Positions 5,256 to 44,546 are shown, numbered from the stretch's first letter. The stretch: 64,000 bases of DNA from Deltaproteobacteria bacterium (GCA_016214995.1 JACRML010000058.1:4194-68193), one strand, 5' to 3'. Translations and numbers: made by a program. The notes: generated from the letters alone by a model not told the origin.

Positions 5256-5816
5256 CTAAACATATCCCTTCAAAACCTTTACCTTGCCTGAATAGGGGTT
5301 ATAGCCAATTGTCAATAATCGCTGTCCCATTTTCAGATGAATGACAAAAGGTTCAGCCCCAACAATGGGGTTGAATACAACCGCCGCTTCTCCCTCGTTT
5401 ATACGTCCCAAGCTTGAAATGACAACATCTTCCATCTCCACCGATTTCTTCAGGGACAATCCTCTTAAAAGGGGCTCCTGCGATTTATTAAACTCAATCC
5501 CGTCTATAGAGGTTTCTATTTTAAACAACTCCTTTTCAGGATAGAACCAAACCCTGTAATATATTTTTTTTGCAGAGGCAGATTCCTCCAGATAACGCAG
5601 CAGGCCGGCCACGCGTCTGGCCTCTGCGTTAAGGGTATAATCTTCAAAGAAATGGATTTTTGGAAAAACGACAAGAAGGACCGTGCCAAGTATAGCTATT
5701 ACTGACAGAAGTTCTAAAAGGGTGAATCCTGTTTTTGAGTGTGAAAGCTGTAGAAACAGGCCTTTAGACCTGTTAATTCTTAAAATGTAGAAACAGGCCT
5801 TCAGGTCTGTTAACAT
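5256..5816 (-). CDS. gspH: Type II secretion minor pseudopilin H
   Basis: It carries the prepilin motif SKTG|FTLLELLSVIAILGTVLL. The closest canonical start upstream of the motif is the ATG at 5816 (the ORF is open to 5858). The resulting leader of about 34 aa is encoded by two REP units. Confidence 0.65.
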   Translation of the reverse strand: MLTDLKACFYILRINRSKGLFLQLSHSKTGFTLLELLSVIAILGTVLLVVFPKIHFFEDYTLNAEARRVAGLLRYLEESASAKKIYYRVWFYPEKELFKIETSIDGIEFNKSQEPLLRGLSLKKSVEMEDVVISSLGRINEGEAAVVFNPIVGAEPFVIHLKMGQRLLTIGYNPYSGKVKVLKGYV

Positions 5817-5840
5817 GGCTAAAGCTATGTTTCTACATTT
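5750..5840. repeat. Three GTAG-headed REP units (two direct, one inverted)
   Basis: 5750-5776 reads GTAGAAACAGGCCTTTAGACCTGTTAA. 5787-5813 reads GTAGAAACAGGCCTTCAGGTCTGTTAA. 5814-5840 is a reverse-oriented variant, GTAGAAACATAGCTTTAGCCATGTT. Confidence 0.85.
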
Positions 5841-7910: not shown

Positions 7911-7967
7911 GCAGAAACATAGCTTTAGCTATATTGGTTTTAACAGGCCTACATGCCTGTTTCTGCA
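7911..7967. repeat. Inverted pair of REP type-1 units
   Basis: GCAGAAACATAGCTTTAGCTATATTGG is followed by TTAACAGGCCTACATGCCTGTTTCTGC, which is the reverse orientation. It lies in the gspF-gspE intergenic region. Confidence 0.8.
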
Positions 7968-8169: not shown

Positions 8170-9726
8170 TCAATCTATCTGCGTTACCCTCAATACCTCT
8201 TCAAGGCTTGTAACACCTGTGGCTGCCTTCTCAAGGCCATCTTCTCTTATGGTTTTCATGCCGCCGGCGACAGCGTATTCCTTTACGGTAGTTGAGTCAG
8301 GATTTTTCAACAGCAATGTCCTCAGAGACTGGTCTATTTGCATGAATTCAAATATGCCTATTCTGCCCTGATAGCCTGTCTTAAAGCATCTGCCGCACCC
8401 TCTTGCCCTCCATAATTTCTTTAAATTATATCTTTGAAGCATGGCAATTTCCTGCTCGGTTGGCGCATACTCTTCTTTGCAATCAGGGCATAATACGCGC
8501 ATAAGCCTCTGGGCAATCACAGCGGATAAAGAAGAAGACAACAAGAACGGTTCTATCCCCATGTCCACAAGTCTTGTTACCGCAGTCGGGGCATCATTTG
8601 TGTGAAGCGTTGACAGCACGAGATGGCCTGTCAGAGACGCCTGAATCGCCATCTTTGCAGTTTCCATGTCTCTTATCTCTCCAACCATGATAATGTCGGG
8701 GTCCTGTCTTAAAATGGAGCGGAGGCCGTTTGCAAAGTTTAAATTAATCTTTGGGTTTACCTGTATCTGGCCGATGCCGTTCAGCTGATACTCTATCGGA
8801 TCTTCGATAGTGATAATATTCCGCTCATTTGAGTTTATCCTGTTGAGTGCGGCGTAAAGAGTGGTGGTTTTTCCTGAACCGGTCGGGCCTGTGACAAGTA
8901 TAATTCCATGATTTTGCAGAAGCAGGGATTCAAGCACTTTAACCTGTTTGGCTTGAAGCCCTATATCTTCAAGGCCGATGAGCCCCCCTTTCCTGTCGAG
9001 GAGCCTTAAAACAGCCCTTTCTCCGAAGGCGGTCGGCACAGTGGCTACCCTGACATCAATATCCTTTCCTGCGACAAGCAATCTTATTCTGCCATCCTGC
9101 GGCAGCCTCTTTTCAGCAATATCCATATTCGCCATAATCTTTACCCTGGATATCAGCGCATCCTGTATTATCTTTGGCGGGGCAATAACCGGATAAAGTA
9201 CTCCGTCTATTCTGAAGCGGACATCTACGCGCCGTTCAAAAGGCTCAATATGTACGTCGCTTGCCTTCTCCTTTACAGCCTGAAACAAGAGCGAGTTTAA
9301 TAGTTTTATTACAGGCGCCTCATCTGTCAGGTCCAGAAGATCTTTAGGCTCTTCCCATTGTTGGGCAATGGCTTCGAGGCTTTCACCGCTTAATTCCTCC
9401 ACCACATCCTGAGCAGAACCTGAAATCCTTTCATAAAATCTGTGGATTGCGTTCAGAATCTGCTGTGGGGGCGATAGTACAGGCCATACATGGACAGAAA
9501 GCATTCTTTCAACATCATCCAGCGCAAACATATCCTTTGGAGCGGACAGGGCCACCAGCAGCCTTTTTTCCTCCATTTTTAAAGGGAATATCATGTTGGC
9601 CTTTACAAAGGGCAAGGGCAGCTTTTCTAAAAAAGCCGGGTCAACGTCGCTGTCTTCAATAGTTTCTTTGTAGGGAAGGCCGAATCTTGCCGAAATAGCG
9701 GCAATATCTATATCCGATTTGTTCAT
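8170..9726 (-). CDS. gspE: Type II secretion ATPase E
   Basis: 518 aa. It has a Walker A motif (GPTGSGKTTT), Asp/His boxes, and a tetracysteine motif (CPDC...CGRC). Confidence 0.92.
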   Translation of the reverse strand: MNKSDIDIAAISARFGLPYKETIEDSDVDPAFLEKLPLPFVKANMIFPLKMEEKRLLVALSAPKDMFALDDVERMLSVHVWPVLSPPQQILNAIHRFYERISGSAQDVVEELSGESLEAIAQQWEEPKDLLDLTDEAPVIKLLNSLLFQAVKEKASDVHIEPFERRVDVRFRIDGVLYPVIAPPKIIQDALISRVKIMANMDIAEKRLPQDGRIRLLVAGKDIDVRVATVPTAFGERAVLRLLDRKGGLIGLEDIGLQAKQVKVLESLLLQNHGIILVTGPTGSGKTTTLYAALNRINSNERNIITIEDPIEYQLNGIGQIQVNPKINLNFANGLRSILRQDPDIIMVGEIRDMETAKMAIQASLTGHLVLSTLHTNDAPTAVTRLVDMGIEPFLLSSSLSAVIAQRLMRVLCPDCKEEYAPTEQEIAMLQRYNLKKLWRARGCGRCFKTGYQGRIGIFEFMQIDQSLRTLLLKNPDSTTVKEYAVAGGMKTIREDGLEKAATGVTSLEEVLRVTQID

Positions 9727-14537: not shown

Positions 14538-15119
14538 TTGAGGAGCTTATCTTTTATCTCCACCCTCTGTCTCCACTCTCTTTTTTTTATTCTTTTCATC
14601 GCCTCCTGCCCGCCTTACCTTGCCGCACAAGACTTGCCCTCTGCACAAACAGGGGAGTGGGCAAATCCATACAACACGCAATATGCGAGCATATACTATT
14701 TAAACGACAGTGACCTCAACACCTTTACCCGAAGTATCGGCAAAGGATTTACATTTTTCGGCGAGAGCCAGGAAAAGAATCCTATGCTGGCAAAAAACAG
14801 GGTTGATGCTATTGTTGAAAGGGTAAGACGTCTCCTTGATATGTATCCGCCAAATCTTCATTTTAAGGTATATATTTATCCCACTTACAGGGAATTAGGA
14901 TTAAAATATCTCGGTACAGGCAATTTTGGAAAATCCCCCATAGCGTTTTACAATCACAAAACTGCGGCTATCTATATTTCGCTACCTGACATCACCGGCG
15001 GCGTCTTAGCTCATGAAATAGCCCATACTGTGATAAATTTCTTCTTTGCTGTGCCGCCGCCCACAGCCATGCAGGAGATACTTGCGCAATATGTAGACAG
15101 GCACTTGTGGGAAGAATAG
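14538..15119 (+). CDS. Putative zinc-metallopeptidase-like lipoprotein (HExxH)
   Basis: It has an HEIAH motif (GGVLAHEIAHTVINF). I place the start at TTG 14538, with AAGGAG 7 nt upstream, giving MRSLSFISTLCLHSLFFILFIASC with lipobox IASC. The ORF is open to a GTG at 14508. Confidence 0.45.
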   Translation: MRSLSFISTLCLHSLFFILFIASCPPYLAAQDLPSAQTGEWANPYNTQYASIYYLNDSDLNTFTRSIGKGFTFFGESQEKNPMLAKNRVDAIVERVRRLLDMYPPNLHFKVYIYPTYRELGLKYLGTGNFGKSPIAFYNHKTAAIYISLPDITGGVLAHEIAHTVINFFFAVPPPTAMQEILAQYVDRHLWEE

Positions 15120-15217
15120 GGAATTATAGCTAATAGCTGTTAGCTCATGGCAACTGTAATACATAACTCCTGCTGTAAAAAGGCGATTAAAAACCTATTT
15201 TTGGAATGGAATAACGA

Positions 15218-15940
15218 ATGATTTATAAGGCCATTCAAACACTCTTTTGGAAAGCCTATTTGCTCAAGGATGCTGTTTTTAAAAAAAGGCTTTACACTGA
15301 GCTAAAAAACATAACAAAATCCCTTGAAGAGGATATATTTACGAAACTTCAAACAAAGGGAATTGCAGAAGCCTCTATTGAAATAACCGGGACAGCGCTA
15401 AATATTAATCAAGATACCCGCGAAAAGCGGGGGGTGGAATATTCTATCCCTGCCTCCCAAAACGTAATAGAATTTTTCAAGGCATTGGATATATCAAAAA
15501 TAGAGATGGATGTAATTCTTGAATCCAATCATATAATGGATATCTTTAGAGACATATATGCAATGAGAAAAGAAACCTCCATTCTAACCGACGGCTATAA
15601 GGCATATTGCGCCATAACCAATTTTTTTCCGGATTCAGGCCTCCTATCAATTAAATATAACTACTGCGAGCTTGACTATTCAAAGGCAGTAAGGGGTATT
15701 AAAGAAAAAGGCAGGCTTAAGGACCACAGGGTGTTTTTCCAGAAAGCACTCCCCTACAGCATCACCGTAGGTTTGGTCGTTATGATGTTAGGGCTGGCAT
15801 ATCCATATATCCCAAGGCAGTTATCCATAGCCCTGTCAATCCTGATAGGACTCGGGGCAGGAATCGTCACCTTTCTGATATTTCAGGTATTGGGTTCTCT
15901 GGAATATGACAAAGAGTATCTGGAAAAGAGATTAAAATAG
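15218..15940 (+). CDS. Hypothetical membrane protein (soluble N-domain plus two C-terminal TM helices)
   Basis: 240-aa ORF with no recognisable motif. TM helices are ITVGLVVMMLGLAYPYI and ALSILIGLGAGIVTFLIFQVLG. Confidence 0.4.
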   Translation: MIYKAIQTLFWKAYLLKDAVFKKRLYTELKNITKSLEEDIFTKLQTKGIAEASIEITGTALNINQDTREKRGVEYSIPASQNVIEFFKALDISKIEMDVILESNHIMDIFRDIYAMRKETSILTDGYKAYCAITNFFPDSGLLSIKYNYCELDYSKAVRGIKEKGRLKDHRVFFQKALPYSITVGLVVMMLGLAYPYIPRQLSIALSILIGLGAGIVTFLIFQVLGSLEYDKEYLEKRLK

Positions 15941-16684
15941 GGACACATCCCTTTTATTCTTGACATCAAGATAAGCCAATGTTATGAAAGTTGCCATGCC
16001 AAGGATAGCAAGAATAGTAGGCTTAGGATACCCACATCATGTAATACAACGCGGGAATAACAGAGAAAAGGCCTTTCTTGACGATGAAGATTTTAAGAAG
16101 TATCTCTCCCTGCTTGAAAAATACTTATCTAATAAGGAAGTTGTATTGCAGGGTTACTGCCTCATGACTAACCACGTTCATTTGCTTTTGAAACCCCTCA
16201 AAGAACAATCGTTATACAAGATGATACAGGGGATAACCCTTTGCTACACGCAGTATTTTAACAAAAAATACAGCCGAACTGGTCGTTTGTGGGAATGCAG
16301 ATACCATTCCTGCATAGTTGATGCAGAACGGTATTTATGGGCAGTAAGCCGGTATATAGAAAGAAATCCAGTAAGGGCAAAAATGGTTGAAAACCCAGAA
16401 GACTACTGCTATTCCAGCGCAAGGTCACACATTTTGGGAGAAGCAAATCAATTAGTTGGAGAACCGTTGTTTGGTGAAAGAGAGTTATCTCAATATAAGT
16501 TATTTGTCAAACGTAAGGAAAAAGAAGAAGAACTGGAAGATATAAGAAAAAAAACAAGGTTAGGAAAGCCCCTTGGAGGTGAAACATTTTTAAGATTACT
16601 TTCAGAAAAATTAGGTCGAACACTTACATTTAGGCCAAAGGGCAGGCCAGCAAAAAAAGAGGGTGGTTAATGGGATGTGTCCCT
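15939..16684 (+). mobile_element. RAYT (IS200/IS605-superfamily Y1 transposase) unit bounded by 13-bp inverted mini-hairpins
   Basis: AGGGACACATCCC at 15939-15951 has its exact reverse complement, GGGATGTGTCCCT, at 16672-16684. Each can fold as a GGGA-CACA-TCCC hairpin. Confidence 0.7.
15984..16670 (+). CDS. REP-associated tyrosine transposase (RAYT / TnpA-REP)
   Basis: It has the HUH motif in MTNHVHLLLKP and a catalytic-Tyr region (SRYIERNPVRAKMV). N-terminal IQRGNNRE and a size of 228 aa fit RAYT. Confidence 0.8.
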   Translation: MKVAMPRIARIVGLGYPHHVIQRGNNREKAFLDDEDFKKYLSLLEKYLSNKEVVLQGYCLMTNHVHLLLKPLKEQSLYKMIQGITLCYTQYFNKKYSRTGRLWECRYHSCIVDAERYLWAVSRYIERNPVRAKMVENPEDYCYSSARSHILGEANQLVGEPLFGERELSQYKLFVKRKEKEEELEDIRKKTRLGKPLGGETFLRLLSEKLGRTLTFRPKGRPAKKEGG

Positions 16685-18007
16685 ATTTTTGATAGAGATA
16701 TCCTTAAGCTTGCGTCTCCAGTATTCTTCGGCATGCTTTCTCAAACCATATTTTATGCTGTTGACACCGCAATGCTGGGAAGGGTTGGTGTGGAGGCATT
16801 GGCAGCGGCCGGTCTCGGCTGGTTCGTTGTCTGGATATTCGGAAGCAGCCTTATGGCTGTGGAGGTGGGAACTCAAAGCCTTGTCGCAAGGAGATTTGGA
16901 GAGGGAGATTGGGAGGCATGCGGAGGGCTTCTTGACAATACCTTATTCTTCACCGTATCATTCGGACTTGTATTTTCTGTTGCAGGCTATCTCCTTGCCC
17001 CAGTGATATTTCCATACCTGTCCGATGATATAAAAATTATTCAGTATGGAATTGATTATCTGAAATACAGTTTCTTATCCATATTCTTTTTTCTCATCAT
17101 TGCCGCATTCAGGGGATTTTTTGACGGCCTTGGCCAACCGCATCTCTTTATGAAGGTTGCTATTGTCATGAATATCTCAAATATTATATTTGACTATGCC
17201 CTCATCTTTGGAAAATTTGGCTTTCCAAGACTTGAGGTAAAGGGTGCTGCCATTGCGTCGCTTATCGCCTCTTTAATAGGCGCTGCCTATTTCTTCAGCC
17301 TGAGTTTGAGAAATGGATTTGCAAGAAGATTCAGATATCTCAGTAGTTATACATTTGATCTGCCTGTTTTAAATTCTATCTTAAGGCTTGCCTTTCCTGC
17401 AATGATTAGGGTATTTTTCATAATGGCAGGGCTTACCATCTTTTTATGGATAGTAGGACGAATAGGTAAAACAGAGCTTGCGGCAAGCAACATACTCATG
17501 ACCCTTTCCTCTTTCACATTCCTCGCTGGTTATGGATTTGCAGTTGCGGCAGCTACTATGGTCAGCCAGAACCTCGGAAAAGGCAATGCGGAAGCTGCGG
17601 AAAGATACGGTTGGGAGGCTGTGAAGCTTGGACTCATATGCATGGGTTTTTTAGGAGTTATATTTATATTATTCCCAAAGATTATGCTTGAGATTTTTAC
17701 TGACCAAACTGCGGTCATAGATACCGGTAAAAACATACTTGTGCTCTTTGGGATAATACAATTTTTTGATGCTGTAAATCTTATCCTTTCCCATGCGCTT
17801 CAGGGTGCGGGCTGCACAAAGTGGGTTATGAAGGTAGAGGGGCTTGTGGTATGGCTTTTGTTTTTGCCGGCAGCATATATATTAAGTGTGGTATTGGGTT
17901 TCGGCCTTTATGGCGCATGGATAAGCATGTTTGCATATAGTTTGATTATGGCATTAAGCATGTTGTGGAAATTTAAGGCTGGCAAATGGAAAGAGGCGGA
18001 GATATAA
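16670..18007 (+). CDS. MATE family efflux transporter
   Basis: 445 aa with 12 predicted TM segments. It has the MATE N-terminal signature ILKLASPVFFGMLSQTIFYAVDTAMLGRVG. Confidence 0.85.
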   Translation: MGCVPIFDRDILKLASPVFFGMLSQTIFYAVDTAMLGRVGVEALAAAGLGWFVVWIFGSSLMAVEVGTQSLVARRFGEGDWEACGGLLDNTLFFTVSFGLVFSVAGYLLAPVIFPYLSDDIKIIQYGIDYLKYSFLSIFFFLIIAAFRGFFDGLGQPHLFMKVAIVMNISNIIFDYALIFGKFGFPRLEVKGAAIASLIASLIGAAYFFSLSLRNGFARRFRYLSSYTFDLPVLNSILRLAFPAMIRVFFIMAGLTIFLWIVGRIGKTELAASNILMTLSSFTFLAGYGFAVAAATMVSQNLGKGNAEAAERYGWEAVKLGLICMGFLGVIFILFPKIMLEIFTDQTAVIDTGKNILVLFGIIQFFDAVNLILSHALQGAGCTKWVMKVEGLVVWLLFLPAAYILSVVLGFGLYGAWISMFAYSLIMALSMLWKFKAGKWKEAEI

Positions 18008-42846: not shown

Positions 42847-42900
42847 GTAGTTTGCCGATTCATCGGCGGTTTTAAAGCGCCCCATGAATGGGGCAACTAC
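42847..42900. repeat. REPIN-like doublet of GTAG-headed REPs (type 2)
   Basis: It reads GTAGTTTGCCGATTCATCGGCGG...GCGCCCCATGAATGGGGCAACTAC. Both strands start with GTAGTT(T)GCC, and each half is a small hairpin. Confidence 0.8.
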
Positions 42901-44475: not shown

Positions 44476-44546
44476 GTAGCTTGCCGATTTATCAACCTCC
44501 CCCTGTCCCCCTCATAGAGGGGGAGCGCCCATAAATGGGCAACTAC
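44476..44546. repeat. REPIN-like doublet (type 2) with an inserted CCCCCTCATAGAGGGGG hairpin
   Basis: It reads GTAGCTTGCCGATTTATCAACC..CCCCCTCATAGAGGGGGAGCGCCCATAAATGGGCAACTAC. Confidence 0.8.

Follow-up and report, generated by a model that had tools for sequence, protein, structure and literature searches.

A probable TIRtron, a Y1/HUH transposase gene between its own terminal inverted repeats, at a gene junction of a deltaproteobacterium

Within a 64,000-nucleotide stretch of the genome of a Deltaproteobacteria bacterium (GCA_016214995.1, JACRML010000058.1:4194-68193; hereafter the window, with positions counted from its first letter), a gene for a transposase of the Y1/HUH type is wedged between a membrane-protein gene and a gene for a MATE efflux transporter, and is bounded by terminal inverted repeats (TIRs) that overlap the stop codon of the one neighbor and the start codon of the other (Table 1). 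The gene is here called the TIRYT gene, after a class of RAYT-like genes considered below, and the genome that contains the window, here G000, is an assembly of 1.98 Mb in 99 contigs that is 82.5% complete. An original prediction, made from the sequence of the window alone, had described a RAYT transposase fitted exactly between two genes, and this layout was borne out. The 13-bp perfect inverted repeats that it reported (AGGGACACATCCC at 15939-15951, with the reverse complement at 16672-16684) are present and extend to 18 bp of perfect identity, or 20/21 overall; this inverted repeat ranks best within 15000-18000, and the 13-mer has no other match in the window at two or fewer mismatches. The left arm holds a 12-bp core, GGGACACATCCC, at 15940-15951, and has a head, (A)GGGACAC, that fits the motif GGGGWSAS at 7/8 positions. 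As had been claimed, the left arm covers the TAG of the upstream gene. The right arm, which starts 1 nt past the TIRYT stop codon (TAA, 16668-16670), had been said to supply codons 1-5 (MGCVP) of the MATE gene, and it indeed holds the G of that gene's ATG together with codons 2-5 (ATG and codons 2-5 spanning 16670-16684). Both arms are edged by A/T-rich runs.

Table 1. Positions of the locus and of the GTAG-headed repeats in the window.
Feature	Position	Strand	Remarks
Upstream membrane-protein gene, 240 aa	15218-15940	+	last codon(s) and stop inside left repeat
Left terminal inverted repeat, AAAATAGGGACACATCCC	15934-15951	+	contains TAG stop (15938-15940) of upstream gene
Predicted sigma-70-type promoter	TTGACA 15960-15965; TATGAA 15983-15988	+	17-nt spacer; own scan, 10/12 matches
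TIRYT gene, 224 aa (228 aa from ATG 15984)	15996-16670	+	Pfam Y1_Tnp, alignment, PDB profile matches, Foldseek, tree
MATE efflux transporter gene	16670-18007	+	start overlaps TIRYT stop (TAATG)
Right terminal inverted repeat, + strand reads GGGATGTGTCCCTATTTT	16672-16689	-	
GTAG-headed family units	797-900, 5750-5840, 7911-7967; 42847-42900, 44476-44546		

That the arrangement exceeds chance follows mainly from its recurrence throughout a family of related loci. A set of 80 loci encoding relatives (36-71% identity), 78 of them usable, was drawn from a wide range of phyla, with Nitrospirota, Desulfobacterota, Planctomycetota, Omnitrophota, Acidobacteriota and Proteobacteria among them. Of the usable loci, 60/78 have inverted repeats on their flanks with a score of 12 or more, as compared to 1/234 shuffles; pairs of upstream and downstream flanks taken from non-cognate loci, which share the family motif, reach this score in 14/300 cases. 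The degenerate motif GGGWSRS occurs in 53 of the 60 repeat-bearing loci, and the strict form GGGGWSAS in 17. At most loci the motif starts 51-61 nt upstream of the start codon (56 nt in the window copy), and the right arm overlaps or adjoins the stop codon. One particular core, GGGACACATCC, is shared by 19 related loci, consisting of 8 from the 80-locus set, 4 copies in the related genomes G002, G005 and G008, and 7 metagenome loci, the nearest database homologues among them. Because these loci keep the same core while encoding proteins that are 51-74% identical, between unrelated neighbor genes, the 12-bp core is far better conserved than the gene that it flanks, and is tied to the protein lineage across phyla. 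Each arm of the window copy can also be folded into a stem of 4-5 bp closed by a 4-nt loop, and to this extent the flanking mini-hairpins of the original prediction exist, but their stability as DNA is low (-2.9 to -4.5 kcal/mol, z -2.3 to -3.1) and they are not a conserved property of the family. Since the arms of other paralogues are non-palindromic, the hairpin character of single arms is incidental, and the family-conserved feature is the inverted repeat with its GGGAC head.

The protein itself belongs to the RAYT lineage of Y1/HUH enzymes. The open reading frame from 15984 to 16670 matches Pfam Y1_Tnp at 60.5 bits (cut-off 23), with an HVH sequence (the HUH motif) at 16173-16181, the catalytic tyrosine of YIERNP at 16353-16355, and a YSS motif downstream. 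When the protein is aligned to 27 homologues (58-74% identical), the catalytic residues H60, H62 and Y120 prove invariant, and there is little or no variation in the YSS motif or in a C-terminal block, IR..T..G.PLG...F...FRPKGRP. The length of 228 aa given in the original prediction corresponds to a reading frame that is indeed open from ATG 15984, but the true start is probably ATG 15996 (MPRIAR..., 224 aa), because nearly all homologues begin with MPRIAR; the upstream ATG falls on the predicted -10 box of the gene's promoter. No match was found with NCBIfam NF033573 (transpos_IS200), and a PDB search with the single sequence found nothing. A PDB profile search with the homologue alignment gave IS200-type transposases (2EC2) and the E. 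coli TnpA_REP protein (4ER8) as its best matches, which are weak (E 0.003-0.05) and in which the HUH and Tyr motifs align with HMH and YIYINP of 4ER8. Foldseek, used with an AlphaFold model (pLDDT 73.5), likewise placed 4ER8, the TnpA_REP enzyme bound to a REP hairpin, at the top (probability 0.99, E 0.017). The C-terminal domain has no significant Pfam match, with one homologue reaching a sub-threshold 15.4 bits against AT_hook (cut-off 17.4); a family-conserved sequence near its end, FRPKGRP(R/K)K (window 16632-16655), resembles an AT-hook.

The genome encodes at least 12 Y1 paralogues, which are of two kinds, short and long, with distinct flanks. The short proteins, of 153-205 aa (on contigs C28, C20, C64, and two on C74), score 110-193 bits against NCBIfam REP_Tyr_transpos and are flanked by hairpin repeats, GTAG-headed in the C20 and C64 cases; in the tree, the C64 paralogue pairs with E. 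coli RayT (45% identity; 96/100 support). The long proteins, namely the window TIRYT at 224 aa and those of C9, C45, C50, C90 and C91, group with all sampled homologues of other phyla in a separate clade supported at 97/96. The paralogues of C45, C50 and C90 each possess a GGGG(A/T)C-headed inverted repeat of their own (GGGGACGGTTCTA, GGGGTCAGACTTA and GGGGTCAGGTCT, respectively), one arm of which is near the promoter and the other over or after the stop codon, and those of C50 and C90 show sub-threshold matches to Bac_DnaA_C and HTH_23. The C91 gene (C91:17687-18601) is truncated at 216 aa, with its right arm about 250 nt beyond the stop codon, and is probably a pseudogene of the C90 type, while the C9 paralogue looks decayed.

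This division bears directly on whether the window gene is a classical RAYT, partnered with a GTAG-headed REP/REPIN family of the genome and flanked by its 13-mers only incidentally. Such a partnership would fit with the protein's sub-threshold score of 64.6 bits against REP_Tyr_transpos and with the presence of two GTAG-headed families in the window, GTAGAAACAGnCC... (3 pattern matches in the genome) and GTAGTTKSCC... (34 matches). The score, however, lies under the cut-off of 80 that the REP-flanked paralogues exceed, the protein falls in a clade separate from E. coli RayT, the 300 bp on either side of the gene contain no GTAG unit, and the flanking repeat has stayed with the protein across phyla, so that this explanation is highly improbable. 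The name RAYT in the original prediction thus holds for the lineage of the enzyme and not for the classical type, and its observation that the flanks are unlike both GTAG families of the window proved correct on comparison. In the 82.5%-complete assembly, no Y1 gene lies within 300 bp of, or is flanked by, either of these families, and a third family, GTAGGGTGGGC, with 32 copies, flanks the RayT-like gene on C64. On the best-supported reading, the GTAG families of the window go with other, classical RAYT systems and are not the substrates of this enzyme, to which annotation should not assign them.

The repeats that do accompany the TIRYT gene form a small family in this genome. The 12-mer GGGACACATCCC is present four times in 1.98 Mb, as the two TIRYT arms, in an intergenic doublet on C51, and at a site within cbiG. 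The doublet (C51, approximately 8409-8478) is gene-less and consists of inverted arms, GGGGACA[AC]ACATCCC and GGGATGTGTCCCC, about 27 nt apart, that fold together as a single long hairpin (-19.4 kcal/mol, z -5.2); its head, GGGGACAC, fits GGGGWSAS at 8/8 positions as compared to 7/8 for the window arm head, AGGGACAC. In this respect the doublet corresponds to a REPIN. A search for an exact empty site of the doublet gave none, the sole relative with the neighboring pirin gene (G002, 94% DNA identity) having unrelated DNA downstream. The cbiG site (C32:7047-7067, within C32:6269-7348) reads aatGGGATGTGTCCCTATTaT, a 20/21 match to the right arm that is translated in frame (..LKKWDVSLLSV..) and for which the chance expectation is estimated at about 6e-5 per genome; its 12-mer is old, since it is present at the same place in cbiG of the relative G001. 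Arms of the C50 type amount to nine copies in G000 at no more than one mismatch, some of which form a doublet on C62 (-21.7 kcal/mol, z -8.0) and others belong to a roughly 90-bp repeat present four times. This repeat is gene-less (C6:11664-11760, C80:4060-4160, C92:5085-5182 and C98:4445-4544), starts with aggcggtGGGGTCAGACTTAACAATTGACATATTTTCCGCATTGA, that is, a C50-type TIR head followed by a TTGACA box, and may be a solo-arm derivative of another TIRtron. Beyond this genome, the 12-mer core occurs in 11 of 13 related genomes, in up to 15 copies (G001), as compared to a single occurrence in total for the reversed control, and in G001 one unit is internally deleted, with the last gene codons alone left between the arms.

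The TTGACA box of the predicted promoter adjoins the left arm on its inner side, and the -10 box ends 7 nt upstream of ATG 15996, a spacing that predicts a leaderless or near-leaderless TIRYT mRNA. A stock promoter scanner made no call here because the -10 box ends in A. Across the family, a sigma-70-like promoter with at least 9/12 matches, ending 5-8 nt before the start codon, is found at 33/77 loci as compared to 1/77 shuffles, and a Shine-Dalgarno-like sequence at merely 11/77 loci. Since the promoter abuts the left arm, a protein bound there could repress its own synthesis.

The position of the unit between its neighbors is derived. In the same-genus genome G004, and in G007 and G009, the MATE gene directly follows the upstream gene, without a Y1 gene or other insert, and in G004 the stop and start codons of the two overlap as ATGA; in G001, also of the same genus, the junction again lacks a Y1 gene and the MATE gene has decayed. 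With four relatives lacking the insert, the unit of approximately 15934-16689 is an insertion into what had been a translationally coupled junction. Vertical descent is further argued against by the failure to find, in 12 related genomes, any orthologue above 57% identity over its full length. On the left, DNA homology between G000 and G004 extends to ...AGAGATTA; on the right, it sets in again at AGAGA(T/C)ATCC. Between these points, 44 bp present in G004 are missing from G000, where the element is located. In consequence, the upstream protein, a 240-aa polypeptide without any family match, is 3-4 codons shorter than in most relatives examined (G004, G001 and G008 have extra terminal residues), and the MATE N-terminus reads MGCVPIFD (8 residues) in place of the MTALLKGPLS of its closest relative. 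Because the MATE ATG overlaps the TIRYT stop as TAATG, behind a Shine-Dalgarno-like sequence (GAGGGTGG, 16659-16666) that sits in the 3' end of the TIRYT gene, expression of the transporter is probably now coupled to the element, and for annotation the point is that the MATE start codon, and probably MATE transcription, now derive from it. Right arms are not general donors of start codons, as open reading frames of at least 100 aa start inside the arm at 8/56 loci and in 12/56 control windows; the fusion with the MATE gene is thus a one-off. Identity between G000 and G004 is uneven across the insertion point, the MATE protein being 92% identical and the upstream membrane protein 72%.

Evidence for movement of whole units, if rare, comes from two loci of one Nitrospirota bin (L014 and L015), which show 3-4 differences in about 745 bp and have different flanks. 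Their identity begins at ATAATTAGGGAC and stops at GTCCCTATTTTT, in each case at the repeats, and no target duplication is seen. This last feature, together with the Y1_Tnp domain and the small hairpin that each arm can form, could be taken to indicate an ordinary insertion sequence of the IS200/IS605 family (IS608, ISDra2), moving as a single strand by peel and paste via subterminal hairpins. The catalytic domain is of the same superfamily, and target-site duplications are likewise not seen. The ends of the unit, however, are inverted repeats in the true sense, not subterminal hairpins of like orientation, so that one strand does not offer two like hairpins; in addition, the protein has no transpos_IS200 match, the arms of sister subfamilies are non-palindromic, and the copy number is low, with no multiple identical copies in G000. 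An origin as an IS200/IS605 element is accordingly very unlikely.

The known system that the locus does resemble had been described before the original prediction, which had left the repeat partner of the enzyme open. RAYT-like genes that are flanked by TIRs, and not by GTAG REPs, were named TIRYTs, and the units TIRtrons, in 2013 (Di Nocera 2013, BMC Genomics 14:522, PMC3733652), in a paper that reports a GGGGWSAS motif shared by many but not all TIRs, a fixed distance between repeat and gene, and small repeat families, and that states TIRYT function to be untested. The window gene is similar in being a Y1/HUH gene that is longer than those of RAYTs, in having TIRs that are unrelated to GTAG REPs and lie at a fixed distance from the coding sequence, often over its 3' end, in belonging to a small family of solo and dimer repeats, and in coexisting with REPtrons in one genome. 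On the head the comparison is divided, the window arms resembling the GGGGWSAS type at 7/8 positions and the C51 doublet at 8/8. The copy differs in that it sits in an operon junction where the repeats give a stop and a start codon. The promoter and leaderless layout and the constancy of one core across phyla are additions of this analysis, not found in the passages of Di Nocera 2013 that were consulted. Subsequently, 20/26 TIRYTs were found to fall in TnpA_REP subclass 2.1 (Quentin 2018, BMC Genomics 19:475, PMC6006769), which is characterized by the absence of REPs, C-terminal extensions that are DnaA_C/HTH-like in one subgroup, and a serine motif after the Tyr. The window gene corresponds in having no REPs nearby, a conserved C-terminal extension, and YSS after the Tyr; the weak Bac_DnaA_C and HTH_23 signals of its sister paralogues C50 and C90 recall subgroup 2.1.2, and the window protein itself would, judging from the published description, be placed in subgroup 2.1.1. 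The window locus fits the class described in 2013, a class that is very large and nearly ignored: a single search found more than 5,000 close homologues, and a full-text search found the term TIRYT or TIRtron in no work beyond these two papers (one also as a preprint).

Comparison with E. coli RayT (YafM, PDB 4ER8) brings out both the kinship and the distance of the two enzyme systems. They share the Y1/HUH fold, the HUH motif, a Tyr in YIxxNP, cognate repeats that are inverted around the gene, and gene-less doublets that fold in the manner of REPINs. The window repeats, by contrast, have no GTAG head or stable REP hairpin and number 4 rather than tens to hundreds, the gene was not vertically inherited at its locus, and the protein is 60-70 residues longer; blastp finds no match between the two.

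The explanation that most likely accounts for the locus is that it is a TIRtron, consisting of a TIRYT gene of the TnpA_REP subclass 2.1 type, its own two TIRs and an internal promoter, inserted at the junction of two host genes. The enzyme would recognize GGGAC-headed arms and would nick and rejoin single-stranded DNA via the HUH motif and Tyr120, with the C-terminal extension and its GRP motif perhaps helping to bind the A/T-rich borders. It would thereby move the whole unit rarely, and would produce or move arm doublets; its transcription would be leaderless and could be turned down by arm binding. The window copy inserted at an operon junction that would then have been remodeled, such that the repeats now provide stop and start.

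Several observations weigh against this explanation. A literature search found no biochemical or transposition experiment on any TIRYT, so that cleavage at the repeats is putative, the head of the window repeat is an imperfect fit, and the structure model is mediocre, with a Foldseek E-value of only 0.017. The insertion is not a clean one, as 44 bp of the host junction are gone and a target duplication is absent, and for these two reasons the event is not reconstructable base by base. L014 and L015, both from a single metagenome bin, may represent two strains. Moreover, G000 has no second copy of the gene, just two further copies of the core, and two homologues followed by exact-sequence look-up (P0112 and P0066) keep the same neighbors in all 20 and 24 contigs, indicating very low mobility.

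The last two points also speak for a domesticated, immobile host gene whose repeats are operator or terminator sites for the gene and its neighbors rather than ends that are cut. This idea is in line with the conserved promoter adjoining the left arm, with the T-run after that arm, which the scanner marks as resembling a terminator, and with the argument that RAYTs in general behave like housekeeping genes (Bertels 2017). It is nevertheless unlikely: four relatives lack the gene at the orthologous junction, no orthologue in the genus exceeds 57% identity over its full length, near-identical units that stop matching at the repeats exist in two contexts, there are doublets without a gene as well as a copy with an internal deletion, HUH and Tyr are invariant, and distribution is patchy across phyla, yet the pairing of protein and repeat is kept.

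A further extension of the TIRtron reading can be offered only tentatively, and is on balance somewhat doubtful. TIRtrons may represent a very slow-moving insertion-sequence family, whose Y1/HUH enzyme is associated with real TIRs, whose left repeat serves as an operator by a leaderless promoter, and in which GGGACACATCCC stayed fixed while the enzyme diverged to about 50% identity over several phyla. If so, the window copy would show how an element can settle in a translationally coupled gene pair without killing its neighbors, the stop and start codons being provided by its repeats and a ribosome-binding site by its 3' end. At about 750 bp, with a 12-bp core as substrate, a natural empty site, a natural hairpin doublet and a predicted leaderless promoter, the unit offers a compact test system that could address whether true inverted repeats can serve Y1/HUH enzymes, and in what way such units may have given rise to REP/REPIN systems.

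A separate observation concerns the outer ends of the arms, where tandem repeats of 9-13 bp copy the outermost arm bases together with adjoining flank (TAATTACTC in four copies and CTTACGTTTCTTC in three among the examples). As a signature of the TIRYT family these stutters show no enrichment in the 80-locus set (2/117 flanks as compared to 1/240 controls). They are common in this bacterial family, with cases at L089 (G002:C9), L103 (G001:C120), L097 and L092, and in G000 at C90:43990-44080 and C51:122-175.

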